DNA from: Escherichia phage anhysbys
Length of the DNA stretch: 64,000 nt
Sequence record: NC_052656.1
Reading direction: 5' to 3' (one strand)
The translations under genes and the position numbers were made by a program. Below the pieces are notes generated by a model. The model was not told the DNA's origin, searched no databases, and was given only the letters and a program-made list of their open reading frames with translations. Below are positions 20,383 to 36,672 of the stretch, piece by piece (position 1 is the first letter of the stretch; each line of letters starts with the position of its first letter).

Positions 20383-20439
20383 TTGATCTAATCTCTCAGA
20401 TAACTTATATTTAATGCGTAGGGCGGCAATGGTGCCGCC
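20383..20439 (+). promoter_or_regulatory. promoter + 5' stem-loop cassette
   Basis: TTGATC, TATATT, GGCGGCA-ATGG-TGCCGCC. Confidence 0.55.
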
Positions 20440-22097: not shown

Positions 22098-22539
22098 ATG
22101 ATAACCATTATCATCTACCCATGATTATCTATGCAATATAAGCGCATAATTATAATGTTGATAATAGTTCGCAACAACTAACCAACAAACAACATAAAAC
22201 AAGAAGCAAACTAATCATAATCAAAGGAATAATAGCAAGATGATTGATAACGACAAACAATCAAACCATGATGAATACTAAGCAAGATAACGATAACACG
22301 ACAAAACAACCAACTAACGAACAATAACAAACGAAACCATTAAAATAATAACTATTGCCATAATAGTGACTGAATGAAATCATTACAAAACGAATCATTC
22401 CCAGGATCATCATTAGCACGCTATGCCGGACACATAGCGAGCTAATAATAAGCCAACTACACCCCAACAATCATAACCATCGGTGATGGTTATTTCTTGT
22501 TACTGCGTAGCTTGCAATAATTGCAAGCGTAATTACGCT
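22098..22539. repeat. cluster of perfect palindromes in ORF-free region
   Basis: ATGATAACCATTATCAT (22098), ATAACCATCGGTGATGGTTAT (22474), GCTTGCAATAATTGCAAGC (22510), AGCGTAATTACGCT (22526). Confidence 0.5.
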
Positions 22540-22732
22540 TACACTTATTGCGCTGGCTTATTATTAGCATTATATGTAATTACCAAGATCATAACATTAA
22601 CGCAATAACAATAATCATTGTAATGGTTACAATATGAAATCATTGGCAAGATGAATAATTGCACGTAGCAACATGAGCGAATAGCGACAGGTTGCATAGT
22701 GTGCACATAATAGAATAAAAGTCAATAATTTT

Positions 22733-22855
22733 GGGGGCGAAATGTTACCGCCACAGGCGGGAATGTTGAGCACTAAGAAAAGAGATAAACCTTAATCATG
22801 GGGGCGTAAATATCCGCAGGATTGCCAACGGCGATCCGGTAGGATGTTGAGCATC
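22733..22855 (+). repeat. two tandem related units beginning TGGGGGCG and ending GATGTTGAGCA
   Basis: Unit 1 ~22733-22775, unit 2 ~22799-22855; internal GC stems. Confidence 0.4.
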
Positions 22856-22923
22856 TTCTCTTAAACGTAAATAAAATCAGAAAATTCTTGATTTATTTTA
22901 GTTTTTATGTTAATAAACGTTTA

Positions 22924-22950
22924 AATAATAATCATTCTCATATGAATAAT
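22924..22950 (+). promoter_or_regulatory. Fur-box-like site
   Basis: AATAATAATCATTCTCATATGAATAAT. Confidence 0.4.
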
Positions 22951-23101
22951 AGTCTGCTTGTCATGAGCGGGATTAGTTGACATTGTTCCGTCATATGATG
23001 AGGTTGCCAACCTATTGATAAATAAGTGTTTGTGTGATTTATAATCAAGTGGCCCACCTTGTCGCTATGTTGGCATGAGCCTTGCATAAGTCATTGAATA
23101 C

Positions 23102-23130
23102 GAATGATAATTATTCTCATTCGCATGATA
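23102..23130 (+). promoter_or_regulatory. Fur-box-like site
   Basis: GAATGATAATTATTCTCATTCGCATGATA. Confidence 0.4.
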
Positions 23131-23462
23131 TTTGGGAATTGTCGCTGCGTGGACCTGACGGCCCGAAAATTCGCGTTAAGCACTTCTTACGTATGCGCCA
23201 TGATTTTTGCCATATGATATTGATTCTATTAGATATTCTTGCCATGATTGCCATGAAACAGGGTGTCCCGAAATAATCTCTCCCCGTAGATATTTTGGGT
23301 TACTTTTTATACAAGAGTGGGGTGTCAAAAATAATCGATATATATGGGATAATTGATAGGAATCCCCTATGGTAATTCGATTGTAATTGCCGAAGATTGA
23401 TCGTATGATGTTGGTGATTGATGATTGCCATGAAAGATGGCTAACGATGAGAGGAGATTGTC

Positions 23463-23807
23463 ATGCAAGAGAGTAAAAATGTTCCGTTAAGTAGTTTACG
23501 TCTAATGAAGTTTTACAAAGCTTGGCTTGCTGGTGAGGTAGAAGGTCACACAACGAGTGGTTTGTGCATATGTTTGATTAAGTATGTGGAGGGAACATAT
23601 CCTGATGAACTGTTACCTCGTCTACAACAAGAGATGAAATCCCAGTTTATTGGTGCAGGACTAGATTACAATTTTCCGTTTAATGAAGGTGGTTATGAGG
23701 AATACACCTTCGAACATAAAAAACATATTTGCCATAAAAACAAACATCGTATACAATGGGTGTTAGATAGAATTCAGGATTATGAAGGAGAGAAAAATGA
23801 CAAATAA
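23463..23807 (+). CDS. FY-WL/GLC/WVKDR family protein, paralog 1
   Basis: ORF track 114 aa; family motifs FYKAWL, SGLCICL, QFIGAGLDYNFPFN, RIQWVLDRI. Confidence 0.65.
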   Translation: MQESKNVPLSSLRLMKFYKAWLAGEVEGHTTSGLCICLIKYVEGTYPDELLPRLQQEMKSQFIGAGLDYNFPFNEGGYEEYTFEHKKHICHKNKHRIQWVLDRIQDYEGEKNDK

Positions 23808-24165
23808 TATTCCGTTGAGCAGTGCAGCATTGCTTCGCTTCTACAAAGCATGGATTGCCAACTATCCTGCAATGAATCGCACAACGAGTGGCTTATGTGG
23901 TTGTCTGGTAGATTATGTAGATGATTTTGTTGGTGAGACAACTAGAGAAGAAGATAGAAGATGGCGGGATAGTTTGTTAGACCGTTTGAAATATGAAATG
24001 AGGAAACAATTTACATGTGCAGGGCTGGACTACAATCTTCCGTTCAATGCAGATTGCATGGATTACCTTTCAGAGTGTATAAACTTGGCGTGTCATACCA
24101 ACACGTTACGTCTTCAATGGGTGAAAGATCGCATTGAAGATGCAAATAATGCTTGCATTGAATAA
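23797..24165 (+). CDS. FY-WL/GLC/WVKDR family protein, paralog 2
   Basis: Track frame; start refined to MTNNIPLSS; FYKAWI, SGLCGCL, LDYNLPFN, RLQWVKDRI. Confidence 0.65.
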   Translation: MTNNIPLSSAALLRFYKAWIANYPAMNRTTSGLCGCLVDYVDDFVGETTREEDRRWRDSLLDRLKYEMRKQFTCAGLDYNLPFNADCMDYLSECINLACHTNTLRLQWVKDRIEDANNACIE

Positions 24166-24223
24166 AAATGTCTGTATAGTGGTTTGCATACCGCGCATAA
24201 CAAATAGCCAATGAGGAGATGAA

Positions 24224-24445
24224 ATGAAGAATTTGAAAACTGTCACAATGTTCTTGACTGATCCTACACGTGTGCAAGCACTGGCTAAAGCCAGCCGTGT
24301 AGCTGTAGAATTCCAAAACTTTAAGCCGTCCGTTGTGACAGGCAGTGAAACGTGTGTTATCGATTTCATTAACGAATACTTCCGAGGGAATCCGGTTAGT
24401 CGTTACTTCATTAAAAACTTGAAGGATGTGGAGCAGGTACAATGA
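24224..24445 (+). CDS. hypothetical protein
   Basis: ORF track 73 aa. Confidence 0.5.
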   Translation: MKNLKTVTMFLTDPTRVQALAKASRVAVEFQNFKPSVVTGSETCVIDFINEYFRGNPVSRYFIKNLKDVEQVQ

Positions 24446-24681
24446 TCCTTCCAGTAGATAATGAGATAGCTATGAATGTTCTGGATACAGAATACTTCTA
24501 CAATCACTACTCTGAGACAGAGTGGATGAACACGCAAACTCTAAAAGAGAAGACGCAAGCTTTGATTAAGTGTGATCGCTACTTGCAACGTGCCGAGGAA
24601 GATAATATAACATTAGCATCTCGCGCACGACGCGTTTCCATTTTCAATAAAATGTTAGCATTATGGGGAGGTAGAAAATGA
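24442..24681 (+). CDS. hypothetical protein
   Basis: ORF track 79 aa. Confidence 0.5.
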   Translation: MILPVDNEIAMNVLDTEYFYNHYSETEWMNTQTLKEKTQALIKCDRYLQRAEEDNITLASRARRVSIFNKMLALWGGRK

Positions 24682-25139
24682 GACAATTCACTATACTGGC
24701 AGCTTATGTGCAATGTGTTCACGATTATGTTAGTGCTCATACAGGTGTGCTGGAAGTTACCAGTAAAATTGAAGGTAATATGGGTACTGTCTGTGTGCAA
24801 CATACTTTATCCAATGTGCCGTTTAAAGTGTTCACTGTTGTAGCTGCCGATTACAATCGCGTAGATGTGCGTTTCTTGGATCGTAATTTTCGTAACGCAC
24901 TAGATAATATCGAAGATTATCTTCCCGTGAAACCTTTGTCATTTCCACCGAGTCGTGCAAATAATGTAGTGACAAATCTTAATGAAAGAAATGTGGCTAT
25001 GCACAAAAAAGTCCGTCAATTGAAAATGCTGATGGAAATGCAAGAAGAGATTGAAAAAGAACTAAAAGAAGATTTTGGTATGCTTCCAAAAGACGCTTTG
25101 AAATGGTATGATGAACTAGGAGGAGAAAGCTATGAATAA
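24678..25139 (+). CDS. hypothetical protein
   Basis: ORF track 153 aa. Confidence 0.55.
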   Translation: MRQFTILAAYVQCVHDYVSAHTGVLEVTSKIEGNMGTVCVQHTLSNVPFKVFTVVAADYNRVDVRFLDRNFRNALDNIEDYLPVKPLSFPPSRANNVVTNLNERNVAMHKKVRQLKMLMEMQEEIEKELKEDFGMLPKDALKWYDELGGESYE

Positions 25140-25326
25140 AGGAACTACTGTATATTTAGTGACTAAGAATACCCCAGGTTGGAGCCAATGCAGCACTGTT
25201 CCTTACAAGATCTGTGCAACATTAGAACTAGCACAACGTGCAGAAGCAGAAGTTGATGCTATGCGATACAGCTACGGTGAAATCATTCCTTTTACTCTTG
25301 AACAAGAAGGAGCACATCATGTTTAA
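25132..25326 (+). CDS. hypothetical protein
   Basis: ORF track 64 aa. Confidence 0.5.
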   Translation: MNKGTTVYLVTKNTPGWSQCSTVPYKICATLELAQRAEAEVDAMRYSYGEIIPFTLEQEGAHHV

Positions 25327-25774
25327 AGTAGGGTTTACTTATAAATTCAAAAGTGTTGTTGACCAAGGAGCTATGGCAACACAGGACAAAGCAAATATTG
25401 CTGTTTGCCAAGCAATTGGAAACGAAGTTTTCAAAGTTATGAATACAGATGATAAGTATGGTCATGTTCTTGAGTTTTATATCAATGGTACCCTCTATAC
25501 AGCAGGTGTTACCCCAGGGTTTAATTCGTATACTTATTTGATTGATAACGAAGAATTTAAATATTTTGAAGAAGTAAAGGAGGAAACAATGGGTAAAGCA
25601 GAACCACAATGGCATGTTGTGATCGTAGGATCAGAGTGTGTAGATGTTTGTTCTAGTTTTGAAAAAGCTTCTGAAGTCGCTACAAAAGCTAAGAAGGATT
25701 ATCCGTCGAAGACGGTTGAGATTTACGCTCGTGTTGCAGTAGCAAACGCCACAATCACTATTGATAAGGAGTAA
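25319..25774 (+). CDS. hypothetical protein (MFK-family tandem paralog 1)
   Basis: Track frame; start refined to MFKVGFTYKFKS; C-terminal region similar to next gene. Confidence 0.55.
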   Translation: MFKVGFTYKFKSVVDQGAMATQDKANIAVCQAIGNEVFKVMNTDDKYGHVLEFYINGTLYTAGVTPGFNSYTYLIDNEEFKYFEEVKEETMGKAEPQWHVVIVGSECVDVCSSFEKASEVATKAKKDYPSKTVEIYARVAVANATITIDKE

Positions 25775-25779
25775 AGCCA

Positions 25780-26235
25780 ATGTTCAAAGAAGGTCATGTC
25801 TACCGTTTCCAGGATGAAGATTATATGCGATTATATTCTACCTTTGATAACAGTATGGCTGCTATCATTGGAGAGAATTTTTTCGAGGTGTTGAGCACTG
25901 ATGCAAATGGTAATATCTTGTCAATTGTTGTGATAGGGAGAGACGGTATTATCACTGCTAGTGATGGGGATCGTTACATAATCAATTCTGCTCATATAGA
26001 TTATTTTGTTGACGGTGGTATTCGTGGTAGTCGTGGAAAACCCCAAGAAGAACCTGTTGATACAACAAAAGAAGAGTGGTATGTTGTAATGACTGATGAC
26101 ACCTGTATTTCTGGATTTGAAAGTTATGAAGAAGCTTTGAAAGAAGCAGCAGAGCATAAAATGGCTAATCCTACAGAAGAGGTTGAAGTTTATAAACGTT
26201 TGGTTGTTGCTACCATCGGCGTATCTTTTGTTTAA
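25780..26235 (+). CDS. hypothetical protein (MFK-family tandem paralog 2)
   Basis: ORF track 151 aa; MFKEGHVYRFQD; C-terminal ..W(H/Y)VV..(S/D)...(F/S)..(A/E)...A....(D/N)P...VE(I/V)Y.R. Confidence 0.55.
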   Translation: MFKEGHVYRFQDEDYMRLYSTFDNSMAAIIGENFFEVLSTDANGNILSIVVIGRDGIITASDGDRYIINSAHIDYFVDGGIRGSRGKPQEEPVDTTKEEWYVVMTDDTCISGFESYEEALKEAAEHKMANPTEEVEVYKRLVVATIGVSFV

Positions 26236-26247
26236 AAGGGGAATGTT

Positions 26248-26685
26248 ATGTTTAAAGTTAATGCTGTTTACTGTTTCAAAAGTAAAGCTGCCTGTGAAGC
26301 TTTCTCTATGATCTCTGATGAAAATTTCAAAATGGCAGCTTTGATTGAAGGGTCTTGTTTCCGCGTCGAAGATGTTAGTGAATCAGGTTCTGTTTGCTCA
26401 TTGACTTTATTGGACAGCGGGGATATTATTGAAGCTGGACAGTATCCGTTCAGAAGTTGGGAGATATTGTTAGCTCGCGGAGAGCGTAACTTTTTTATGT
26501 GCGTGTCTGCGGGGGAAGTTGTGAAAGAAACTAAGGATGTTTCTGTTTACAATTCTGAATTTATAAGTTATAGTGAGTATCAACATCTGGAAGGCATTGT
26601 TGGTCACTTGTTATCTCTGATTGACATTGAATGTGACTTGCCTGAATCATTGAAAGAAGAGTTGAAAGCATTAGATCTGCTGTAA
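26248..26685 (+). CDS. hypothetical protein (MFK-family tandem paralog 3)
   Basis: ORF track 145 aa; MFKVNAVYCFKS. Confidence 0.55.
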   Translation: MFKVNAVYCFKSKAACEAFSMISDENFKMAALIEGSCFRVEDVSESGSVCSLTLLDSGDIIEAGQYPFRSWEILLARGERNFFMCVSAGEVVKETKDVSVYNSEFISYSEYQHLEGIVGHLLSLIDIECDLPESLKEELKALDLL

Positions 26686-26712
26686 TGTTTGACACAACGA
26701 AAGGAGAATAAG

Positions 26713-27012
26713 ATGAATCTGACTGAACAGTTACGCCGTATTGCAAAAGAAGCTTCCTTCAACTTCCCTGTTGAAGAAGTGATCGAGACATGTTTTGCTG
26801 AAGCACGAGCGGGAAACTCTTCAAGAAATTTCACACCATCTGATTTTGGTTTGGATAATTCTCCTACTCATCCAGGGGAAATCTACAATCAGGTGAAGTG
26901 GATGGATGAAGCAGTAGCAATTCTTCGTGAGCGTGGGCTTATTGTTTATAAAGAAATGGATCTGAACGGGGCATACGAGTGGATCACTATTGATTGGTCC
27001 GAGGTGAAATGA
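26713..27012 (+). CDS. hypothetical protein
   Basis: Track frame; start refined to MNLTEQLRR after AAAGGAG. Confidence 0.55.
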   Translation: MNLTEQLRRIAKEASFNFPVEEVIETCFAEARAGNSSRNFTPSDFGLDNSPTHPGEIYNQVKWMDEAVAILRERGLIVYKEMDLNGAYEWITIDWSEVK

Positions 27013-27245
27013 TGAAAGGTAACAAGATGAAAGTTAATCAAGTGCCGAGCGCATACACTTTGTGGCTTGCGCGAGCGTTACACCAGACGATCAAAAACCC
27101 TAAGAAGCCAATGAAGAGCGGGAAGAAGTTTATGTCTAAGGGCAAAACAACCTTTGGCTTCACTCGTATGTCTGTTAAGATGAAAAGACTGGGGTACAAG
27201 CCAAACTACGCTCGTTACCCTTCTGAATACAACTGGTTTGACTAA
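27009..27245 (+). CDS. hypothetical basic protein
   Basis: Track frame; Lys/Arg-rich. Confidence 0.5.
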   Translation: MMKGNKMKVNQVPSAYTLWLARALHQTIKNPKKPMKSGKKFMSKGKTTFGFTRMSVKMKRLGYKPNYARYPSEYNWFD

Positions 27246-27257
27246 AAGGAGAAAGCA

Positions 27258-27731
27258 ATGGCAGGTTTGAAACTGGAGATGTTGACAAAGCAAGAATTTG
27301 TTCCCGAACACGGTGAAACTTACATTGCTTTCTTGATTAGTGATTTTTATGGGGATTTAGAGTATGTTGAACTGGAATGTGAGTTTCACTACCAAATGAT
27401 TGACGCAGAAACTGGTCATTGTCTGGGTACGTCTGCGGTGTATAATGGTGATAATGGCATTCCTTTTCATACCCCAATGAGGTACGAAGCGAAAAACCGA
27501 TTCAAACTTCTCACAGAAGAAGAAAAAGAGACATATAAATATCACGAAGAGGAGGATCAACGCTTCTGGTGGGAGAAAACTTGGTTCCTGTCTGATCGCC
27601 GTAATCTTCAGATTCACCCAGAAGAACTGGATGAAATGTCTATTGGCATTATGAAGAAGAAAGACTTCATGTTCCAGGTGAGAGAAGCTAATAAGCTCCG
27701 TATTGCAATTAAAGAGGAGAACAAAACATGA
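27258..27731 (+). CDS. hypothetical protein
   Basis: ORF track 157 aa; AAGGAG RBS. Confidence 0.55.
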   Translation: MAGLKLEMLTKQEFVPEHGETYIAFLISDFYGDLEYVELECEFHYQMIDAETGHCLGTSAVYNGDNGIPFHTPMRYEAKNRFKLLTEEEKETYKYHEEEDQRFWWEKTWFLSDRRNLQIHPEELDEMSIGIMKKKDFMFQVREANKLRIAIKEENKT

Positions 27732-28012
27732 AAACATCTATTCGCGTAAAACATGATCCAAACAGCAGTTACCCATACGCGGATGTTGAACGTCATGAAG
27801 GAGACTATTACACCATAAAACGTAAAGTCCCAACTGATACAGGGTTTAACTTTGATGTTATTGCGCTGGATGATCAAGGTGTTGATAATCTGGTGAACGC
27901 ATTACTCGCATTGAAGGAAGTACGACATGAAAATCAGACTAAAGGTAAAGTGGCTTTCGATTCTTGTGATCGTTTAGCCGAAGAGATTGCCGAATGGCGT
28001 GACACTAACTAA
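27728..28012 (+). CDS. hypothetical protein
   Basis: ORF track 94 aa. Confidence 0.55.
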   Translation: MKTSIRVKHDPNSSYPYADVERHEGDYYTIKRKVPTDTGFNFDVIALDDQGVDNLVNALLALKEVRHENQTKGKVAFDSCDRLAEEIAEWRDTN

Positions 28013-28027
28013 AACAGGAGAAAGATT

Positions 28028-28204
28028 ATGGCTACTTTTCAACAACTGAAAGATGTTTCACGTTTAGTAAGAAAAATCCGAGAAGCAGACGCTGCTGTGC
28101 GGAATGCACTAACGCCAGCAGAGCGTGAAGATCTTGAAGAGGAGGTGAAAACAGCCGAGAATGCTTTTGCTGTGTATCTTGCAACACTGCATACAGGAGG
28201 TTAA
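28028..28204 (+). CDS. small hypothetical protein (~58 aa)
   Basis: Own translation MATFQQLKDVSRLVRKIREADAAVRNALTPAERED...; AGGAGAAAG RBS; fills gap. Confidence 0.4.
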   Translation: MATFQQLKDVSRLVRKIREADAAVRNALTPAEREDLEEEVKTAENAFAVYLATLHTGG

Positions 28205-28519
28205 ATGTCAGAGGAACTTAAAGAATTTTATCAGGCATATCATAACTGGCTATTAGCTGGTGCTCCAGATAATAATCCTTTCTGGCATGATAAAGGATTA
28301 TGTAGTTGTCTCTACCTTTGGACTGGTGGTTACGATGATCTAAATTATGAAATGCAAATGCAATTTCGAGAAGCAGGGTTGTCTGAAGAATACCCGTTTG
28401 ATGACGGAGACTGGTTTAAATATGATTTTGCACAAAGAAACGGGCTATTGCATTTGAATGCTGCCCGTATAAAATGGGTAAAAGATCATGCTACACAGGA
28501 GGATGTGCAATGCCAATAG
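28205..28519 (+). CDS. FY-WL/GLC/WVKDR family protein, paralog 3
   Basis: ORF track 104 aa; FYQAYHNWLLAGAP, KGLCSCL, RIKWVKDH. Confidence 0.65.
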   Translation: MSEELKEFYQAYHNWLLAGAPDNNPFWHDKGLCSCLYLWTGGYDDLNYEMQMQFREAGLSEEYPFDDGDWFKYDFAQRNGLLHLNAARIKWVKDHATQEDVQCQ

Positions 28520-28710
28520 TGTTTAGTTTCTTGGTAATTGTTATGGTTGTTCTTTTCGCAGCATGGCTTTGGGATTTTGACCCAGGAGCAGCGCAGCAAA
28601 GAGCTACAGACTGGAAAGAACAATGTATTGTGCTCAAACATGAACGAAATGCGGAGAAATTTCTTGACCTGGAGTGTGATCGCCTTGTAAGATACAAGCA
28701 AGATAAATAA
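28510..28710 (+). CDS. small membrane protein
   Basis: Track frame; start refined to MPIVFSFLVIVMVVLFAAWLW. Confidence 0.45.
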   Translation: MPIVFSFLVIVMVVLFAAWLWDFDPGAAQQRATDWKEQCIVLKHERNAEKFLDLECDRLVRYKQDK

Positions 28711-28724
28711 CTTTGAGGTGCAAA

Positions 28725-28913
28725 ATGGTAATTGAGATTAAACTTGAATATGCTGGCGCTGTTGCTCTGATCGCACAAATGCTTGGAGCAAAGATTGAAG
28801 AAGTGTATATCAATGCCTGGAGCGTAGAGATTGATGTTCCTATGGACAACATTGCTAATCGCTTGCTGGTGGCAGAGTGTGAACGCACCAACATAATCTA
28901 CAAAGGAGCATAA
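28725..28913 (+). CDS. hypothetical protein
   Basis: Track frame; start refined to MVIEIKLEY. Confidence 0.45.
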   Translation: MVIEIKLEYAGAVALIAQMLGAKIEEVYINAWSVEIDVPMDNIANRLLVAECERTNIIYKGA

Positions 28914-28914
28914 T

Positions 28915-29136
28915 ATGAAAATTAGAGTTTGTGATGTATTGGGTTATGTTGGTTTTGAGAATGTTCAGATTCCTTTTGTTGTTGAAGCACATCTTGTTAG
29001 CGATGACATGACAACATTCTTTGTTACGATAGAAGAAATGTCCAAAGTTGAGGGATGGGAGTGGTTTGAAGAAGATGTTTGGGAAGGTTGTGATTACGTA
29101 TTTTTCTCTGATGAAGTGAATGTTCTTTCGGAGTAG
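28915..29136 (+). CDS. hypothetical acidic protein
   Basis: ORF track 73 aa. Confidence 0.5.
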   Translation: MKIRVCDVLGYVGFENVQIPFVVEAHLVSDDMTTFFVTIEEMSKVEGWEWFEEDVWEGCDYVFFSDEVNVLSE

Positions 29137-29138
29137 GT

Positions 29139-29345
29139 ATGTCTTGTTTTACAAAAGCAGTATCCATATGTAAGAAACAGTATGAAAGTGACTACGGAAT
29201 ATTTAATATTCCAGTGGATCATACGGAGTATTGTTCATGTGGTGGCAGAATGAAGAAAACAGTGATTTATGCGGATAATGGAGATGAACTTGTTCCGGTT
29301 ATGGTTTGCAAAGCTTGTCATTCTGTTAAAACATTAAAAGCGTAA
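29139..29345 (+). CDS. small zinc-ribbon protein
   Basis: ORF track 68 aa; C..C ... CSCGG ... CKAC. Confidence 0.5.
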   Translation: MSCFTKAVSICKKQYESDYGIFNIPVDHTEYCSCGGRMKKTVIYADNGDELVPVMVCKACHSVKTLKA

Positions 29346-29440
29346 GGAGTCGGGACACCCGACGATTGGAGCTAAAAATTTTGCGTACAACCCTTTCCGC
29401 CCAACAGGGGCGCGTCGGGTAAATAAAGAGGAGAGTTTAT

Positions 29441-29839
29441 ATGAAAAAGATCATCGTAGGTTTATTGTTACTCATTGCGTCACTTGGAACAGCAAATGCG
29501 TCTCAAGTTTATGAGTGTGTGTCAGATGTGGTTGTTAAAAATCTGAAAGGTGAAGTGATTTCTGGTCCTAAGAAAATGGCTTCTGTTGTCATTAATAAAG
29601 ATAACTCCTTTATCCTTAAAAATTCAGGTGGTGCTTTGATGAGTGGCATTCTGCAATACACAGGAGAAAAAAGTAAAGATGGTAGTGCTATGTACGGTTC
29701 GCAACAGTTTATTGGCACTACTGAAGTTGTGATGATGCGCACAGAGTATCGAGACACTTTAGCTTGGTTTGCATTTCTAAAAAATGATAAAACAATAACG
29801 AATGTTCTTACTCTAGAAGCTGATTGTACGCAACGATAA
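29441..29839 (+). CDS. putative secreted protein
   Basis: ORF track 132 aa; signal peptide MKKIIVGLLLLIASLGTANA; AGGAGAG RBS. Confidence 0.6.
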   Translation: MKKIIVGLLLLIASLGTANASQVYECVSDVVVKNLKGEVISGPKKMASVVINKDNSFILKNSGGALMSGILQYTGEKSKDGSAMYGSQQFIGTTEVVMMRTEYRDTLAWFAFLKNDKTITNVLTLEADCTQR

Positions 29840-29849
29840 GGGGGTATTT

Positions 29850-30296
29850 ATGACTAAAGTGCGACATTATGCTGTAAACTGCAATGATGTTTGGCGTTTG
29901 TGTCCTGATGATCCGACAGAAGGCACATTTGTAAAATATGAGGATTATAAAGAGTTATCGGATGCTGTGATCGCATTGTTAACTGATATCCGTTCACGTT
30001 ATCCAGGACAAGATTTCACTTGCCCTCACATCAAACTTCTTGCTTGTCTGGTAGAAGATGAGAAAGAAGTGGAAGATGGCTTCAAGCGTGTAGAGTATCA
30101 AGGTGAAACTTTAGATGTTCCTGAATTTGTTAATTATATTGCAACAGACTCGGATGGTGATCGTTATGGTTACAGCCATAAGCCAGAGATTCCTGATTGG
30201 ATTCCCGCTTGGCGTATTTCCGTTAGTACCGGAGACTATATCTTCCTTGGCGTAGGTAGTAGTAAGGATTGGCGTTTCTCTTTGACAGAGGTTTAA
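29850..30296 (+). CDS. hypothetical protein
   Basis: ORF track 148 aa. Confidence 0.55.
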   Translation: MTKVRHYAVNCNDVWRLCPDDPTEGTFVKYEDYKELSDAVIALLTDIRSRYPGQDFTCPHIKLLACLVEDEKEVEDGFKRVEYQGETLDVPEFVNYIATDSDGDRYGYSHKPEIPDWIPAWRISVSTGDYIFLGVGSSKDWRFSLTEV

Positions 30297-30300
30297 TAAT

Positions 30301-30564
30301 ATGAAAGAGACATTGCCAGCAGCATACCGTTTGAATGATGAGCGTATTTGGGAGTGGACCGACGTTTCTTGTTTTTACCCTGAGATAGTTCAATATTGGC
30401 GAGCGAAAGGGTGTGTTGTAGTTATCAACCCTTGTGGACCAGTAGATGAAGATTGCTTGTATCTCGATGGAAAGTGGCACAGTTATTGTCGCTGGCCTTT
30501 TGAGTGGATGTGTAAAGAAGATCTCCCAGAGGGTTGGGAGTATCCAAAAGCAAATAGGAGATAA
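30301..30564 (+). CDS. hypothetical protein
   Basis: ORF track 87 aa. Confidence 0.5.
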   Translation: MKETLPAAYRLNDERIWEWTDVSCFYPEIVQYWRAKGCVVVINPCGPVDEDCLYLDGKWHSYCRWPFEWMCKEDLPEGWEYPKANRR

Positions 30565-30565
30565 T

Positions 30566-30928
30566 ATGTCTAAAGATTTTGTTGAAGTATTTGTCAAAGA
30601 TGAAGAAACTGGTTTAGGCACGGGTTTCATTTGTGAAGAAACTTTTAAGCGTGAACAAGAAAAAGCCATTCTTATGCACCGCTATGATCATGCATTAGAA
30701 CAATGGAAAAATGCAGAACAAAAATGCAAAAACCTTTACGCAGAAAATAGAAAACTACAAGATCAAATGGAGTTGTTAGCTATCAGTTTACGATCTCTCA
30801 TTTTGGCTGTAGAAGATGGTTTTAAAAATCCAGATGGTTTTCCTGTGAGCGATATTGAACATGATTTGTATCTTGCTCGTGGTGCTTACTTTTATGTTAA
30901 ACAGAAGCCTGTAGAAGGAGAGAAATGA
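30566..30928 (+). CDS. hypothetical protein
   Basis: Track frame 30446-30928; start refined to MSKDFVEVF after AGGAGA. Confidence 0.55.
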   Translation: MSKDFVEVFVKDEETGLGTGFICEETFKREQEKAILMHRYDHALEQWKNAEQKCKNLYAENRKLQDQMELLAISLRSLILAVEDGFKNPDGFPVSDIEHDLYLARGAYFYVKQKPVEGEK

Positions 30929-31125
30929 TGGAAGAAAAACTGGAACGTATTATCGAGTTAGCCATGTCTATTGGCTACGACGATTGTTTTCTCCAAACTA
31001 TTGGAGAAACACAGAACGATTACGACTCTTGGGTGAAAGAGTTGGAAGAACTCAAAACTTCCTTGATTGCTGACTTTGCTTACGCAGAGAATAAAGCAGA
31101 TCGTTACAACTATCTGTGTCGATAA
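30925..31125 (+). CDS. hypothetical protein
   Basis: ORF track 66 aa. Confidence 0.5.
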   Translation: MMEEKLERIIELAMSIGYDDCFLQTIGETQNDYDSWVKELEELKTSLIADFAYAENKADRYNYLCR

Positions 31126-31187
31126 GCCTTGACATTTATTTTATGTATGGTATACATACATTATCAACGTGAGAAAGGTGGTGTAAT

Positions 31188-31460
31188 ATGAATAAAGATC
31201 GGTTTCTTTCTTTAGTCGCGGAAGCGCCTTTTGATGTTCTTGGGGTGAGATTATGGAAAGACAGAAACTATGGGTTAGATGTTCAAACATATTCTCTTTG
31301 GTTGGTTGGGGAGCACAGCTTAGATGAAAGCTTGTGCATGGGTAGGGATTCTCGTTCCCTTTGTTTAAAGTTTAGAAGCTTAGAACGCGCAAACAAAGAG
31401 CAAGAAAAACTAACGAGGTGGCTAAATGAAAACAAGCGCAGGGTTGATGGAGTTTTATAA
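31188..31460 (+). CDS. hypothetical protein
   Basis: ORF track 90 aa; TTGACA promoter-like upstream. Confidence 0.5.
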   Translation: MNKDRFLSLVAEAPFDVLGVRLWKDRNYGLDVQTYSLWLVGEHSLDESLCMGRDSRSLCLKFRSLERANKEQEKLTRWLNENKRRVDGVL

Positions 31461-31752
31461 AATTTATCTAGCATGGATTGATGTTGGTGCTCCTGATGGT
31501 AAACCTTTTCGGCGAGATTGCGGTTTGTGTGCCAACTTGTTCGATTATGTGCACGCAGATGGCTACAATCTCCTTATAACAACCTTGTCAGACGAAATGC
31601 ACTCACAGTTCTACTACAAAGGGTTGAGTCAACAACTCCCTTTCAATGAGAACTACGATGCATATGTCTTAGAATCAGATGCAGAGGTATGTCACCTGAA
31701 CGTGGACAGGATTAATTGGGTAAGAGATCGTATTGCAGAGGAGGATGAATAA
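31426..31752 (+). CDS. FY-WL/GLC/WVKDR family protein, paralog 4
   Basis: ORF track 108 aa; FYKIYLAWIDVGAPDGKPF, CGLCANL, RINWVRDRI. Confidence 0.65.
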   Translation: MKTSAGLMEFYKIYLAWIDVGAPDGKPFRRDCGLCANLFDYVHADGYNLLITTLSDEMHSQFYYKGLSQQLPFNENYDAYVLESDAEVCHLNVDRINWVRDRIAEEDE

Positions 31753-31979
31753 TGTCGGATTATAACTGGTATGAACTTGAGGCTGTTTGTCAGTTTTATG
31801 ACTCAATAGTTCTGCGTGATCCAATCTGTCAAGAATTGAGTCGCCGTGCAAGTGCATTGGCAATCAATGTTAAAGTGCACGATTGGAACGCAGATCTGGA
31901 AAAAGAATTGGAATTCCTTTTGGAAACAACCTGTGTCTTCCATAAAGTGTTCCCTGAATGGTTTGAGATGGAGGAATAA
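31752..31979 (+). CDS. hypothetical protein
   Basis: ORF track 75 aa. Confidence 0.5.
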   Translation: MSDYNWYELEAVCQFYDSIVLRDPICQELSRRASALAINVKVHDWNADLEKELEFLLETTCVFHKVFPEWFEMEE

Positions 31980-31981
31980 GC

Positions 31982-32194
31982 ATGTGGATTGTCCGTCTTA
32001 AGTATGATGGCAAGTTTCCGTGGGAGAAAGATGTTTGTGCCTGTGATTCAGCAGCACATGCCAAAGCAGCGGGTCAGGCAGTAGTTGACATGTATAACAA
32101 CACCCCCTTTGATCCAGAAATGGCAGGTGTTACAATGAGCATGTTCACTTACTATTCTTTTGAGGTTTACTATCACGAAGGAGAGTGGAAATGA
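31982..32194 (+). CDS. hypothetical protein
   Basis: ORF track 70 aa. Confidence 0.5.
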   Translation: MWIVRLKYDGKFPWEKDVCACDSAAHAKAAGQAVVDMYNNTPFDPEMAGVTMSMFTYYSFEVYYHEGEWK

Positions 32195-32511
32195 GCGAAG
32201 AGCTATTAACATTTTACCGCACGTATTTGGCATGGTTGGAAGCTGGTGCTCCTGAAGGTGAACCGTTCACCCGTTGCACAGGTTTGTGCACGAACCTCTA
32301 TGATTTTTACGACATAGGAGAAAGCGAACGATACGAACCTGTACTGGATGAAATGCATGAGCAGTTCTACCTCAAAGGTTTGGTTATGGTGTTGCCTTTC
32401 AACAGTAATTTTGGAAAGTACACCTTAGAAGCGGAAAAAGGCCGTTGTCATTTGAATGTGGATCGTGTGAACTGGGTAAAAGAACGTGTAGCAGAAGAAA
32501 TAATTGGTTGA
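32191..32511 (+). CDS. FY-WL/GLC/WVKDR family protein, paralog 5
   Basis: Track frame; FYRTYLAWLEAGAPEGEPF, TGLCTNL, RVNWVKERV; closest to paralog 4. Confidence 0.65.
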   Translation: MSEELLTFYRTYLAWLEAGAPEGEPFTRCTGLCTNLYDFYDIGESERYEPVLDEMHEQFYLKGLVMVLPFNSNFGKYTLEAEKGRCHLNVDRVNWVKERVAEEIIG

Positions 32512-32565
32512 CAGAAGGATCTGTCTTTGTCATAATCGTCTCATCGAAACAGAGAGGAGAAAATC

Positions 32566-32979
32566 ATGAAAAAGTTTATTTGCACCCGTTCCACTAACAG
32601 TGATATCCTTGTAGGTAAAGTTATCAAAGGAGAACTCTTCCATGCAAACGGTAAGAAATATATTCTGCTGAAAGATTCTTTCAACGGGGAATATCCGCGC
32701 TGCACTTTCTTCAATTACAATACTCCATTTGCTTTAGAAGGAGATGCTTGGGACTGGGCTGAACTTCATCCTTGTTGTGAGGAAGAAGAATCTATGTTCT
32801 TAGGTTTAAACGTTTACCGTGTAGATTACACCATGTGCGGAGCGGAATATTCTGTTCGCGTAGAAGCCGAATCCAAACTACAAGCACCTTTCAAGGCGGG
32901 ATTGACTTTGGGTCATTGTTTGGCAAACATTGAAGATGTTGTGATCCAAAGAGTTGTTTTAGAGAAAGAGGCTATTTGA
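32566..32979 (+). CDS. hypothetical protein
   Basis: ORF track 137 aa; GAGAGGAG RBS. Confidence 0.55.
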   Translation: MKKFICTRSTNSDILVGKVIKGELFHANGKKYILLKDSFNGEYPRCTFFNYNTPFALEGDAWDWAELHPCCEEEESMFLGLNVYRVDYTMCGAEYSVRVEAESKLQAPFKAGLTLGHCLANIEDVVIQRVVLEKEAI

Positions 32980-33031
32980 CAGAAGACGGTACAATATTTA
33001 AAATATAAAGATTAACCACAAAGGAGAGAAT

Positions 33032-33331
33032 ATGCAAGTTGAAGACCTGATCCACATTCTGAATAAAGCTAAAGAGAAGGGTGCTATCAAAGACTGGAAA
33101 CGTGAAACAAGTGAAGATTTATCTCATTGTTGCCGAGAATTTTACATCGAAGGTATTGCTGACGATCATTATACTATTGAATGGTATATCAACTTAATGA
33201 CTCTTAAGCACGGTTCATTTGAGGTTTGGTTTGATGATATTGATGTAAATGGTTTCCATCCTGGCTATAAAATCGCTATGCAGTTATCTTATCGTAGAGA
33301 AGTTGTAGCACATTTGGGTTTACATAACTAA
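33032..33331 (+). CDS. hypothetical protein
   Basis: ORF track 99 aa. Confidence 0.55.
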   Translation: MQVEDLIHILNKAKEKGAIKDWKRETSEDLSHCCREFYIEGIADDHYTIEWYINLMTLKHGSFEVWFDDIDVNGFHPGYKIAMQLSYRREVVAHLGLHN

Positions 33332-33341
33332 GGAGAAAAGA

Positions 33342-33665
33342 ATGCAAGCAGTTGTTAACGAAGCTATTATGAACTTATCCTTCTTGTTAGCTGGTTTAGG
33401 AGGTGTTCTCATAGGTTTGGCTCTTATCTGGTGTATTCGTCGATTAATCGGGTACCGACAAAAAGGTGTTTCATGTTTTGTATCTTACAATTTTACAACT
33501 GCTTACAGCAATGAGGTTGGATCTGGCAATGCTCAAGCATTTTTACCAACATATCCTCCTACGGTGGAAGATATTCGAAACTTGGAAGTAGAACTTATGG
33601 GACTAGGTGATAACTATACATCTCTAGTTATTCAAAATATTTTTCGACTAAAACAGGGGGCGTGA
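33342..33665 (+). CDS. membrane protein
   Basis: ORF track 107 aa; hydrophobic LSFLLAGLGGVLIGLALIWCI. Confidence 0.5.
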   Translation: MQAVVNEAIMNLSFLLAGLGGVLIGLALIWCIRRLIGYRQKGVSCFVSYNFTTAYSNEVGSGNAQAFLPTYPPTVEDIRNLEVELMGLGDNYTSLVIQNIFRLKQGA

Positions 33666-33878
33666 ATGAAGGTATATTACCCTCATCCGTTTGATCCTAA
33701 AAACAAAGCCGTAATTCTTCGTCAGTGGCAACGGGTTTGTCGTACTAAATGTCCAATCAATAGCCCACACAATGTAGACAAGGACTATCTTGGGACATTT
33801 GTTGAATACACTTACATAGACAAAAACAAGCGTAAACAACATGTCGAGGAATACTGCTTAAGAGTAGAATGGCTGTAA
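33666..33878 (+). CDS. hypothetical protein
   Basis: ORF track 70 aa. Confidence 0.5.
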   Translation: MKVYYPHPFDPKNKAVILRQWQRVCRTKCPINSPHNVDKDYLGTFVEYTYIDKNKRKQHVEEYCLRVEWL

Positions 33879-33948
33879 ATAATAAATACCTTGACAAGTG
33901 TTTATTCATTTTGTAAAGTGAGAATACAGCAATGGTTTAGGAGTGGTT

Positions 33949-34620
33949 ATGAAAAAGTTTGTTGTTTACAGTCGTCTTTCTAAACAGAAAAAAGGCGAGG
34001 CACAATATGGTATGGAGAGCCAAGAGAACGATATCCGTTACTTCTTAGACTCTGTGCCTGATGCGGAAGTTATTGGTCAATTTTCTGAATACTATTCGGG
34101 TAAGGGCGATTGGAAGCAACGTAAGGAACTGGTTAAAGCGGTTGAAATGTGTAAAGCTACCGGAGCAACTTTATTGGTAGCTAAAGTTGACCGCTTGGGT
34201 CGTAACAACGCCTCCGTAGCAACTCTTCTAGAAATGATTGATGTTAAGATAGCCATTATGCCAGATGCAGATAAAATGGTTATACAGCTTCTGTCTGTTC
34301 TGGCTGAACAAGAGGTTAGAGGTATTGCTGATCGTATTAAAAAGGGTCTTGCTGTAGCAAAAAGCAAAGGTGTTTTATTAGGCAGTGCTAATCCTAAAAC
34401 TGCCGCTGCACGTAGAAAAGGAAAAATGGAATACAACTCTGTTAAAGCAGACGCTTTTGCAGAGACATTTCGTGAACGTTTGGAGATCCTGAGAGATTTA
34501 AATACACCTTACAAAACTATTGCTGAAAAATTCAATAGTAAGAAAATAGCAACAGCACGTGGTGGTAAATGGGATGCTAAGACTGTTTCTCGTTTGTGTG
34601 CCAGACTGAACATTAAATAG
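33949..34620 (+). CDS. serine recombinase (resolvase/invertase family)
   Basis: N-terminal VYSRLS (catalytic Ser context), LLVAKVDRLGRN, E.R.I..RIKKGL..AK; C-terminal ARGGKWDAKTVSRL; own TTGACA promoter upstream. Confidence 0.7.
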   Translation: MKKFVVYSRLSKQKKGEAQYGMESQENDIRYFLDSVPDAEVIGQFSEYYSGKGDWKQRKELVKAVEMCKATGATLLVAKVDRLGRNNASVATLLEMIDVKIAIMPDADKMVIQLLSVLAEQEVRGIADRIKKGLAVAKSKGVLLGSANPKTAAARRKGKMEYNSVKADAFAETFRERLEILRDLNTPYKTIAEKFNSKKIATARGGKWDAKTVSRLCARLNIK

Positions 34621-34628
34621 GAGAGGAT

Positions 34629-35051
34629 ATGAAACAAGAAAATGAATCTGTAGATCACTTAATCATGCTGTCAGCCCTTTTTGCAGGATGGGACGTATTT
34701 TTTGAAAATTTGTTCAATTCTGCTACAGATGGTTCCGATTTTATGCGCCAATTTAAACGACGAACTGTTGAGGACTATACCTTCTATTCAGGTCTGATTG
34801 AAAAAGGTTACGAAGATACAAATACAACACTCACCATTAAAGTTTTAGATGTGATGTTTAGTGTTATAGATGCTATCGACGAAAGTCTTCCGATCCTAGA
34901 CAATTGTAATACGAAAGCCTATGTTTACAAAATAGCTCGTGCTTATGTGTCTGCAAACAGTTGTCTTCTTTCCACCCAGATTGCCGTGAACAATCTTGCC
35001 AACTTGTTTGATGAAGGAGAAACTTTTTATGACAATCGATTTGAAGTGTAA
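34629..35051 (+). CDS. hypothetical protein
   Basis: ORF track 140 aa. Confidence 0.55.
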   Translation: MKQENESVDHLIMLSALFAGWDVFFENLFNSATDGSDFMRQFKRRTVEDYTFYSGLIEKGYEDTNTTLTIKVLDVMFSVIDAIDESLPILDNCNTKAYVYKIARAYVSANSCLLSTQIAVNNLANLFDEGETFYDNRFEV

Positions 35052-35394
35052 GAGGATTCTTTTAGATTTCTATAATAATTGGTTAGAACACCTCCGTCTC
35101 TTTCCAAGAGAAAGTGGTTACGCTGATGTTGGCTTATGCCGAGGTCTGCGTATGTATATAAGCGATGAATTTCGGGCAGAGCATTCTTTAGCATATTCTG
35201 TTTATGGTATGCAATTAGCCAGTTTTGAAAACGCTGGCTTAGATACAACTTTCCCATTTAACACAGCAAAATCTTTTGAGCAAGAGTGTAAGGAAAAACG
35301 TTGTATGTTTAATGAAAAACGTGTACAGTGGGTTAAGGATCGAGTTAAACAACTGGAACAAGAGTTGGATTTCTTTTATGACGAGGCAGAATAA
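35029..35394 (+). CDS. FY-WL/GLC/WVKDR family protein, paralog 6
   Basis: Track frame; LLDFYNNWL, VGLCRGL, FENAGLDTTFPFN, RVQWVKDRV. Confidence 0.6.
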   Translation: MTIDLKCKRILLDFYNNWLEHLRLFPRESGYADVGLCRGLRMYISDEFRAEHSLAYSVYGMQLASFENAGLDTTFPFNTAKSFEQECKEKRCMFNEKRVQWVKDRVKQLEQELDFFYDEAE

Positions 35395-35666
35395 TGGATA
35401 GACAAACCTTAAAAACAATGGCAGATGCTACTAATTCTCCGTACTTTGAAAAAGTAAGTAAATTGGTAGCTCAAGCCGCAGAGGAAGGATATTATAACAT
35501 AAACATCCACAACCCAAGTCTTATACTAGAAATGCCAAGTGATAAAAAGATACAAGAGAGTATCTGTGAAGGTATTGTTAGTTACTGGCGCGAGCGTGGG
35601 TGTGGTGCAAACATGGCTTTAGACAGTGCAAACATTGTAAGATATATAAATATTTCTTGGGGGTGA
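35394..35666 (+). CDS. hypothetical protein
   Basis: ORF track 90 aa. Confidence 0.5.
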   Translation: MDRQTLKTMADATNSPYFEKVSKLVAQAAEEGYYNINIHNPSLILEMPSDKKIQESICEGIVSYWRERGCGANMALDSANIVRYINISWG

Positions 35667-35670
35667 TTTT

Positions 35671-36282
35671 ATGATTCAATGCACTCATATCCAAATTACT
35701 TGGAGAGATGAACTTTACCATTTGGGACAATTTACTGTAGGGGAAACATACCCTATCATTAAACATAATCCTAACATCGCAAACTTTGACAGGATGGTTC
35801 TTGTTGAGGACGATCTAGGTCAAACTTATTCTTTAGATCTAAAATATCCGTTTTCTTACGGCTACGATTGGATCGTTACTTTTGAAGACGCGGAGGAAAA
35901 TAAAACAATGAACGAAAAAAATTCTTGGTATTATCGTTGCGAACTGCCGCCAGTAGGTGAAAAGGTTATCTTTGTTCCCGATTTGGAAAGATATTCTTGG
36001 GATAGTTCTTATTCTGTTCCTAAAGAAGGCACCGAAGTTGAAGTTATTGCACATCGCACAACTTCGCATGGTAACGACGTAGCAGTTGTTTTCTGGGATG
36101 ATGAAGGTGCTGCTTGTGCAGGTGGCTTTGTTGCAGGTAATTTTGAACCCCTGCCAGATCCTCTGAAGGAGGCAATTTTAGGCGTAGCTTCTTTTGGACT
36201 CTCTTACACGTCTGCACAAGAGATTGTAGAAGGTATTTTAAACGGTACCGTTCCAAACGAAATTTTCAAACAGATTAAATAA
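35671..36282 (+). CDS. hypothetical protein
   Basis: ORF track 203 aa; hairpin/terminator downstream. Confidence 0.6.
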   Translation: MIQCTHIQITWRDELYHLGQFTVGETYPIIKHNPNIANFDRMVLVEDDLGQTYSLDLKYPFSYGYDWIVTFEDAEENKTMNEKNSWYYRCELPPVGEKVIFVPDLERYSWDSSYSVPKEGTEVEVIAHRTTSHGNDVAVVFWDDEGAACAGGFVAGNFEPLPDPLKEAILGVASFGLSYTSAQEIVEGILNGTVPNEIFKQIK

Positions 36283-36287
36283 CAGTT

Positions 36288-36312
36288 GCACCCCGTTCTT
36301 CGGGGTGTTATT
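36288..36312 (+). terminator. terminator-like hairpin
   Basis: CACCCCG-TTCTT-CGGGGTG + TTATTGTAT. Confidence 0.45.
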
Positions 36313-36333
36313 GTATACGTAAAGGAGGAGATA

Positions 36334-36672
36334 ATGTATTACACTGAAGACTACATACTGTATAACTTTTTTAAAGGCTGGTTGGAATGGGCGGAAAAAG
36401 CTCCTGTTGGAGATTGTGTTTTTCCTTGGGACTCTCGTCAAGGTTTGTGTCGTTGTTTGGAAGACTGGCTTATAACCACAAGCTACAACTCAGAAACTAA
36501 GAAATCTACATCACAAAGGTTAAAAATTTTATTTGAAGAAGATGGTTTAGATCCAATTTATCCTTTCGGTGAGGAAAGTTTCCACAATGGTCTTTTCCTT
36601 GGCACTCAACATTATGATAAAGATCGTGTAGATTGGGTAAAAGAAAAGGTAGCACAGTATGAATGGGGTTAA
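36334..36672 (+). CDS. FY-WL/GLC/WVKDR family protein, paralog 7
   Basis: Track frame; start refined after AAAGGAGGAG; FFKGWLEWAEKAP, QGLCRCL, RVDWVKEKV. Confidence 0.6.
   Translation: MYYTEDYILYNFFKGWLEWAEKAPVGDCVFPWDSRQGLCRCLEDWLITTSYNSETKKSTSQRLKILFEEDGLDPIYPFGEESFHNGLFLGTQHYDKDRVDWVKEKVAQYEWG

Follow-up and report, generated by a model that had tools for sequence, protein, structure and literature searches.

Why would a strictly virulent phage keep a gene for a serine recombinase? This question is raised by a stretch of 64,000 nucleotides (nt) of Escherichia phage anhysbys (NC_052656.1), here called the window, in which positions 33949-34620 on the + strand encode a recombinase of 223 amino acids (aa). 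The window is ~98% identical to the phAPEC8-like phages, the ~150-kb virulent myoviruses of Phapecoctavirus (Stephanstirmvirinae). Two statements about this gene are strongly supported by the sequence comparisons given below: its product would be an active, stand-alone small serine recombinase, made up of a catalytic domain, an E-helix and a short C-terminal helix-turn-helix (HTH), and it would be transcribed early by the host RNA polymerase from a sigma-70 promoter of its own. Recombinase genes are routinely read as markers of lysogeny in screens of therapy phages. Here, such a gene is a fixed and strongly selected part of the strictly virulent and widely used phAPEC8-like/phi92-like group, with no integrated copies in Escherichia coli genomes, which matters for these screens.

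An earlier note on this DNA had described a serine recombinase with its catalytic serine, its own promoter, a position inside repeated paralogous genes, a strictly virulent phage as the setting, and no neighbouring TnpB-like open reading frame (ORF). These observations are all borne out below. The note had also raised the possibilities of programmed rearrangement, of an IS607-like remnant and of a co-opted regulator, and these are taken up where the evidence bears on them.

The recombinase protein

The gene and the domains of its product are as follows.

33949-34620, + strand: serine recombinase coding sequence (CDS), ATG at 33949, TAG at 34618-34620, 223 aa
33949-34374, + strand: catalytic domain with the long E-helix, residues 1-142, helix at 109-139
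33979-33981, + strand: codon of the nucleophile Ser11, in the motif Y7-S-R9-L-S11, invariant in 43 homologues
34393-34605, + strand: five-helix domain of DNA-binding type, residues ~149-219, with helices from the AlphaFold2 (AF2) model

The protein matches the Pfam family PF00239 (Resolvase) over residues 5-142 with E=5e-18 (66 bits versus a cutoff of 23.3), as do all 43 homologues, and PHROG 125 ("DNA invertase") at 3e-32. It aligns by sequence to the Tn3 and gamma-delta resolvases over residues 34-142, a part that covers D67/R68/R71, and the profile of the 43 homologues matches the structures of Gin, Tn3, gamma-delta, Sin and TP901-1 (1e-17 to 1e-13, with 1e-17 to 1e-15 for the first four). 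The AF2 model, based on the 43-homologue alignment, has a pLDDT of 88.6 and displays an alpha/beta domain followed by the helix 109-139. With this model Foldseek found Sin, gamma-delta and TP901-1 at probability 1.00, and Bxb1 was also matched, over 259 columns. Residues Y7, R9, S11, R58, D81, R82 and R85 are invariant among the homologues, which are 31-78% identical; we take their counterparts in gamma-delta resolvase to be Y6, R8, S10, R45, D67, R68 and R71, respectively. The motifs quoted in the earlier note are all present (VVYSRLSK, LLVAKVDRLGRN, LAEQEVRGIADRIKKG and RGGKWDAKTVSRL), and the note's refuting condition, an absent catalytic serine, does not apply. Judged by these matches, the protein is a serine recombinase with intact catalytic residues. 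No NCBIfam equivalog scored over its cutoff. A role as component of a defence system was rejected, since no PADLOC model matches the protein.

Then, which DNA-binding domain follows the catalytic domain? The resolvase domain HTH_7 gave no match at E<=1 in this protein or in any of the 43 homologues. By contrast, the family PF07508 ("Recombinase") is weakly matched in this protein (E=0.003, residues 187-216, model positions 19-48 of 102) and reaches 22 of the 43 family members (best 5.9e-6), while PF20552 ("Recombinase-like HTH") is matched in two of them. The C-terminal helices carry the motif (I/A)A..LN..G..T.RG..W....V. The C-terminal domain appears to resemble the N-terminal part of the "Recombinase" domain of large serine recombinases and not the resolvase HTH. 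Because HTH_7 is lacking and PF07508 and PF20552 signals occur across the family, the predicted architecture is that of a small serine recombinase joined to a fragment of the DNA-binding module of the large ones. A compact 223-aa enzyme with such a module could interest genome engineers.

Promoter and leader

The short leader of the gene contains the following features.

33879-33948, + strand: cassette leader, the 70-bp intergenic gap between the stop codon TAA (33876-33878) of the DUF7202 gene and the recombinase ATG
33891-33919, + strand: sigma-70-type promoter TTGACA-17 nt-TAAAGT, 10/12 in the promoter scan
33939-33943, + strand: ribosome-binding site (RBS) AGGAG, 5 nt ahead of the ATG, read from the sequence
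33898-33927, no strand assigned: weak dyad TGTTTATTCATTTT-GT-AAAGTGAGAATACA, overlapping the -10 element, 10/14, chance level

The -35 element TTGACA (33891-33896) and the -10 element TAAAGT (33914-33919) both lie inside the gap. An alternative GTG start at 33943, given in the ORF list, is less likely than the ATG at 33949. Comparable promoters occur in other gaps of the early region (32508, 32976 and 37923); consequently, the recombinase promoter taken alone is not special. The homologues of Justusliebigvirus EmilieFrey, Klebsiella phage FBKp34 and Vibrio phage ICP1 are each preceded, at an equal distance, by a TTGAC(A/T) promoter, and promoters scoring at least 10/12 precede 14% of 78 homologues versus 1% of control windows. 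Based on these same-distance promoters in other genera and on the family-wide enrichment, the promoter appears to be a conserved property of the recombinase gene. In FBKp34 and in the compared records L020 and L022, a terminator is also present upstream of the recombinase. The features of a moron-like autonomous unit are thus found here, namely the own promoter and differing genomic contexts (three loci) in related phages.

A conserved hairpin in the 5' untranslated region (5'-UTR) was rejected for this phage (z = +0.37). The weak dyad at 33898-33927 is listed in view of the enrichment of dyads at -62 to -28 ahead of the genes of the family; it is, speculatively, the sole candidate binding site that is cis-linked to the gene.

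The position of this dyad bears on the co-opted regulator of the earlier note, that is, on a domesticated DNA-binding protein which would act at an operator, in its own or another early promoter, and would have lost recombination. The dyad does overlap the -10 element of the gene's own promoter, resolvases such as the TnpR proteins of Tn3 and gamma-delta are known autoregulators, and the assemblies display no recombination products. However, the catalytic residues, for which a pure repressor would have no use, do not vary in any of the 43 homologues, even at 31% identity. We see only a slim chance that the gene encodes a regulator of this kind.

Does the recombinase rearrange the surrounding genes?

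The recombinase is located within a ~36-kb block of + strand genes (~5-41 kb), which converges with a - strand block at ~41 kb. From ~23.5 kb rightwards the + strand block consists mostly of small genes without assigned function, and the recombinase sits among about 100 small early genes. Its immediate neighbours, likewise without assigned function, are phrog_28757, DUF7202 and phrog_25865. The DUF7202 protein (33666-33878, 70 aa) is labelled "methionine ABC transporter ATP-binding protein" in many GenBank records, which is almost certainly a propagated mis-annotation. The repeated genes around the recombinase belong to one family.

23463-36672, + strand: seven dispersed phrog_2510 paralogs, context only and not part of the recombinase system
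23463-23807, 23782-24165, 28205-28519 and 31426-31752, + strand: phrog_2510 copies 1-4, by PHROG assignment
32191-32511, 35011-35394 and 36334-36672, + strand: phrog_2510 copies 5-7, by PHROG assignment

The copies share 28-52% protein identity in an all-against-all BLASTP and all have one orientation, and at the DNA level they have only a 38-nt stretch in common, which is 62-74% identical. Copy 5 and its upstream neighbour (31982-32511 compared) are replaced by a single 222-nt gene in the phages nieznany and Schickermooser; therefore, the phrog_2510 copy number varies among otherwise ~97% identical genomes.

The earlier note had raised for this locus the possibilities of local inversion, deletion or shuffling by way of the paralogs and of an IS607-like remnant, to which a cryptic integrase may be added. 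The recombinase is indeed placed between copies 5 and 6, and the longest inverted repeat of the 12 kb around it (28-40 kb), with arms at 33476-33513 and 35612-35649 and 28/38 matches, happens to flank it. However, this repeat is at chance level, since 6 of 12 shuffled sequences gave one at least as good, and phage phiWec181 lacks the gene that holds the left arm. The search of the flanks for crossover repeats, which the note had called for, returned only the coding similarity of the paralogs and inverted repeats at chance level. Likewise, when the whole phAPEC8 genome was compared with itself by BLAST, none of the significant repeats, direct or inverted, had a copy within 1 kb of the recombinase. 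Neither a res site with accessory subsites nor paired inverted crossover sites were found beside the gene, whose leader is only 70 bp, and no inverted repeats adjoin its homologues in two prophages or 75 viral loci.

The assemblies tell the same story. The 22-kb neighbourhood lies on one strand and is collinear in more than 60 public assemblies, with no inversion, deletion or other structural isoform in any assembly compared; the few records that matched in two places are matches reaching the record ends. A synthetic query made of the joined flanks found them 742 nt apart, with the gene between them and a span of 1542 nt, in the 54 Phapecoctavirus records listed with both flanks, apart from EP57 (1541) and Schickermooser (1516); none of these 54 records gave an empty site. 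The recombinase loci of Justusliebigvirus, the Klebsiella phages and ICP1 have no protein in common with this neighbourhood except the recombinase itself, and paralogs are absent there. Because the repeats are at chance level, the assemblies are collinear and other genera carry the recombinase without the old, diverged and co-oriented paralogs, the latter would be a genus-specific backdrop and not a substrate of the recombinase.

Could the gene instead belong to IS607 or to an integration system? Membership in IS607 was rejected, since the catalytic domain is N-terminal, a MerR-type HTH is lacking and there is no TnpB: 24-41 kb holds no ORF longer than 225 aa, hence none of TnpB size. An IS607-like remnant is further contradicted by the 39 synonymous versus 0 non-synonymous codon differences described below. 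Lysogeny was rejected as well, since a megablast search with a 3-kb region gave no match in 5,426 complete E. coli genomes. A Gin-like inversion of tail-fibre genes was also considered and rejected: the Mu S/U-like fibre genes of phAPEC8 (91-93 kb) are single and co-oriented (see also the BASEL paper). As far as these comparisons reach, the recombinase does not rearrange the surrounding genes, and a local shuffling system, an IS607-like remnant and a cryptic integrase are all highly improbable.

Selection and distribution of the gene

If the surroundings are not its substrate, is the gene merely decaying? Between the window and UP17, nieznany and phAPEC8, respectively, there are 10/0, 17/0 and 12/0 synonymous/non-synonymous codon differences in the recombinase gene (39/0 in total), and about 60 phage records encode the protein with 100% identity. 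The flanking genes mostly have ratios of ~1:1 to 4:1, and all but one have non-synonymous changes. Given the zero non-synonymous changes and the identical protein in ~60 records, the recombinase gene is evidently not a decaying remnant. The phages with the identical protein were obtained on widely differing strains of E. coli, Shigella and Klebsiella.

Homologues are 52-60% identical across the Stephanstirmvirinae, which is inside the range of other shared proteins between genera (25-100%), and 30-38% identical in 130-150-kb Vibrio and Shewanella phages. In the tblastn search ~130 of 166 records are enterobacterial-type phages, an estimate from organism counts, and the DNA of the region is matched by 130 records. 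Consequently, the gene appears to be present in essentially every relative. In ICP1 the homologue is located in a variable block between gp30 and gp41, where the record lists no gp number for the genes under "previously called".

Relocation of the promoter-gene cassette

Loci were compared by tblastn synteny mapping against the window ORFs. Four lineages share one site, and the carriers include Justusliebigvirus (EmilieFrey and KKP_3264), the Klebsiella phi1_175008-like phages (L095 and L019) and the metagenomic record L016. At this site the recombinase and its own promoter stand between homologues of the window ORFs 50090-50293 and 49262-49852, both on the - strand, inside a long conserved block. 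The window has the corresponding position without the gene.

49853-50089, - strand: "empty" counterpart of the four-lineage site, holding a terminator-like hairpin and a small ORF

Filled and empty sites thus differ by replacement and not by clean insertion. A third locus is found in FBKp34, next to homologues of window 676-1044 and 5588-10922. In addition, the Phapecoctavirus phages phiWec181 and ESCO13 have other flanking genes around the recombinase; there the homology to the window starts at AATAAAT, ~12 bp before the -35 element, and stops at the stop codon. In ESCO13 a promoter of the phiWec181 type is joined to a CDS of the window type, and the junction lies in a 23-nt stretch common to both, at the start codon. 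The cassette boundaries are tight against the neighbouring stop codon and ribosome-binding site.

Based on these comparisons, the conserved and relocated unit is promoter plus gene, ~0.74 kb. It is strongly supported that this cassette is an old, selected component of the Stephanstirmvirinae, which would have moved at least twice. Its ancestral site was probably that between the homologues of ORFs 50090-50293 and 49262-49852, and moves would be rare.

Then, does the cassette move itself? Tight boundaries, three loci in otherwise syntenic genomes, the lack of a conserved neighbour in 80 viral loci, the variable region in ICP1 and the enrichment of leader dyads would all fit a minimal selfish mobile element. 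Such a ~0.74-kb unit, a free-standing serine-recombinase gene with its own leader dyad, would occasionally re-insert between genes. If true, a self-mobilising unit would account for the three Stephanstirmvirinae loci as well as the presence in the ICP1 variable region, and it would be a new IS-like element or selfish gene, the serine-recombinase counterpart of the free-standing homing endonucleases. However, the gene has one fixed place, with the span as expected, in the 54 Phapecoctavirus records listed, none of which showed an empty site; four diverged lineages share one site, so that moves must be very rare, and empty and filled sites differ by replacement. Moreover, purifying selection is extreme, unlike that on typical selfish genes. 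We therefore regard both the selfish element and its occasional re-insertion as improbable. Because moves are rare and filled and empty sites differ by replacement, ordinary mosaic recombination explains the relocations as well as self-mobility does.

One copy of the gene looks different. In Schickermooser (NC_048196), positions 3846-4230, which correspond to window 33790-34175, have eight deletions of 1-7 nt in DNA that is otherwise ~97% identical, and these deletions are confined to the 3' end of DUF7202 and the first ~230 nt of the recombinase gene. They could mean that the gene is naturally knocked out, that the population was heterogeneous or that the assembly is locally wrong.

Relatives on other replicons and upstream dyads

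More than 540 relatives of the recombinase were found in IMG/VR. No neighbour gene is conserved in 80 viral loci, and a conserved partner gene was rejected since the commonest neighbour cluster occurs in only 12 of them. The neighbours that can be named include RecE-like and Erf-like proteins with a tyrosine integrase, replication initiators, primosomal proteins, DNA methylases and terminase. On temperate-phage contigs some relatives are located just before the terminase gene, and some of these phages have a tyrosine integrase gene in addition. Two cellular homologues are in prophages beside tail or baseplate genes, where invertible segments were not detected.

Relatives are also common on small plasmids, including pMaD11, Klebsiella plasmids of 5.8-6.5 kb and Synechococcus plasmids of 6.4 kb. 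Those on plasmids of 5.8-6.5 kb are 35-39% identical, align over 95-99% of the protein and have the same two-domain layout. For example, pMaD11 (5.8 kb) encodes RepA, a ParA-like protein and the recombinase, with ~680 bp of non-coding DNA upstream of the latter, and one Klebsiella plasmid of 5.8 kb has a 34-bp palindrome with a 2-nt centre, TATCATTTGTTTGCCG-AA-CGGCAAATTTATGATA, 34-67 nt upstream of the gene.

Dyads of this kind are enriched in the family. Upstream dyads of at least 11/14 with a spacer of 0-4 nt were found in 28% of 85 loci versus 10% of control windows, where the loci counted are partly related and so are not independent observations. Of these 24 dyads, 14 lie at -62 to -28, and one subgroup has the common sequence TACAAAA-N5-TAACG-NN-CGTTA-N5-TTTTGTA. 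Some dyads include the ribosome-binding site and could be 5'-UTR hairpins (L016 and L039). The enrichment may therefore be taken as a lead and not as proof. As a separate observation, the Shewanella phages 1/40 and 1/4 have a 28-bp dyad, CCCAGT-GACTTAATATAAGGTT-ACTGGG, ~45 nt upstream of the homologue; its flanks are the same in both phages, and the 16-bp core in one is the exact reverse complement of that in the other.

Proposed function

What, then, could be the substrate of the recombinase? We tentatively favour, as a real possibility, that the recombinase acts on replicating phage DNA in the way of a resolvase and that each genome has one site. As a dimer, the enzyme would recognise a short dyad that occurs once in each phage genome and may lie in the leader of the recombinase gene. 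Copies of this dyad on replicating DNA would then recombine as resolvase sites do, so that multimers or concatemer units are reduced to monomer circles or co-replicating genomes swap arms. The same job is presumed for the lone serine recombinases of like architecture beside rep/par genes on small plasmids. This type of exchange may be the most economical explanation, because the relatives stand alone on small replicons or in phage replication or recombination modules and have cis-linked candidate sites. A note on Phapecoctavirus SKA64 makes the same concatemer-resolvase guess, without data (PMC10282059). The gene is already annotated in several GenBank records, as "serine recombinase", "resolvase", "DNA invertase" or "putative site-specific recombinase". 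In the literature we found annotation-level mentions and the one unsupported remark on a "resolvase for concatemers", and nothing experimental.

Several points weigh against a resolvase-like role. No recombination site was identified in this phage, the leader dyad (10/14) is at chance level, and it does not lie at the mosaic junction of ESCO13. Nor is it obvious why a virulent phage should resolve multimers when it packages its DNA from concatemers. The uncharacterised relatives on plasmids and in temperate phages are only ~35% identical. The dyad enrichment comes from related loci, and the dyads with a ribosome-binding site may be hairpins, as noted above. In addition, the Schickermooser copy is seemingly disrupted, so the gene may be dispensable in culture.

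The missing site raises the question of whether the substrate lies outside the phage genome. The recombinase might act on host or competitor DNA during early takeover or counter-defence, at a host site, a prophage or invertible element, or a satellite. A host-type early promoter, the company of about 100 small early genes and the lack of a site pair in the phage genome are consistent with such a target. The ICP1 homologue is located in the variable accessory block gp30-gp41, and ICP1 is engaged in an arms race with PLE satellites, which use a serine integrase (PMC6002521). However, there is no sequence evidence for any host site, and PADLOC gave no match. The identical protein across phages from diverse E. 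coli, Shigella and Klebsiella strains and the relatives on small plasmids point to a replicon-autonomous role. Consequently, we consider an external target unlikely, and the resolvase-like reaction on phage DNA remains our preferred explanation. Finding the site would discriminate between Cre/lox-like resolution, attack on the host or a satellite, and a new selfish element in virulent phages.

The genome terminus and the non-coding region at 20-23.5 kb

Where is the recombinase located relative to the genome ends? Justusliebigvirus BME3 has a published 342-bp direct terminal repeat. Its left end maps in reverse orientation to window ~22840-23180, which is thus a terminus-equivalent region, and the records of the Phapecoctavirus phages ESCO5 and Schickermooser begin at window ~22.85-23.43 kb. 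Because ~22840-23180 is equivalent to the genome terminus, the recombinase would belong to the first early block, at a distance of ~10.7 kb from the left physical end. A Cre/lox-like cyclisation at the genome end was considered and found unsupported; the recombinase is more than 40 kb from the BME3 left end.

This region has features of its own. Within the non-coding DNA at ~20.1-23.46 kb, positions 22415-22580 are 80% conserved with BME3, and several of their dyads are kept between the genera by compensatory changes, for example TTAGCACGCTATG..CATAGCGAGCTAA versus TTAGCAGCCTATG..CATAGGCGGCTAA, ATAACCATC..GATGGTTAT versus ATAACTATC..GATAGTTAT, and a long-range pair at 22441-55/22554-68. The conserved dyads of the terminus region covary as nucleic-acid structure and not as protein sites, and 22415-22580 resembles a structured RNA or an origin element of single-stranded DNA, although no Rfam family matches it. 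No inverted repeat in the whole phAPEC8 genome is stronger than the 38-bp palindrome at 22514-22551, GCAATAATTGCAAGCGTAA|TTACGCTTACACTTATTGC (17/19); in BME3 only its left part is kept, as the 19-bp palindrome GCTTGCAATAATTGCAAGC.

A Fur-box-like motif, AATGATAATTATTCTCATT, occurs at 23103-23121 and at 22924-22942. The copy at 23103-23121 is 100% conserved, as the reverse complement, in the terminal repeat of BME3, where the surrounding DNA is ~76% identical. In addition, the motif GTAGGGCGGCAATGGTGCCGC(TCAC) precedes small genes at window 20131-20165, 20404-20438 and 21429-21463. With many copies at 0.5-3.2 kb and 143.7-147.6 kb of phAPEC8, it is the dominant repeat family of that genome, and the phAPEC8 record labels it as a phage-specific (PHIRE) promoter.

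Comparison with known systems

How does the phage recombinase compare with the systems known so far? The small resolvases and invertases (Tn3/gamma-delta TnpR, Sin, beta and Gin/Hin/Cin) have the same catalytic domain and E-helix, with YxRxS, DRLxR and a size of ~200 aa. They are its best sequence and fold matches in the Protein Data Bank (PDB), and the gene, like tnpR, has a promoter directly upstream. However, these enzymes carry HTH_7, which the phage recombinase does not, and next to the phage gene there is neither a three-subsite res nor a pair of inverted crossover sites. The phage locus is also without a transposase, an invertible tail-fibre segment or a plasmid backbone.

The large serine recombinases exceed ~400 aa and possess a full recombinase domain together with a zinc-ribbon domain and a coiled coil. 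Those of phiC31, Bxb1, TP901-1, A118 and TnpX/TndX have C-terminal helices similar to those of the phage protein (PF07508 positions 19-48), whereas the latter, with its 223 aa, is without the rest of the recombinase domain, the zinc-ribbon and the coiled coil, and there is no integrated copy. In IS607 TnpA, an N-terminal MerR-like HTH is followed by the catalytic domain, usually with TnpB at hand. TnpA is also a serine recombinase and can be the sole protein that a mobile element needs, but its domain order is opposite to that of the phage enzyme.

P1 Cre is a phage site-specific recombinase that acts at one site per genome and cyclises or resolves phage DNA. The analogy to Cre-lox is functional only, since Cre is a tyrosine recombinase of a temperate plasmid-prophage and no lox-like site was identified here. 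Finally, the small-plasmid recombinases (pMaD11, Klebsiella and Synechococcus) have low identity to the phage protein and belong to circular plasmids instead of a 150-kb virulent phage, while sharing with it the same architecture, the lone position on the replicon and the non-coding DNA upstream.

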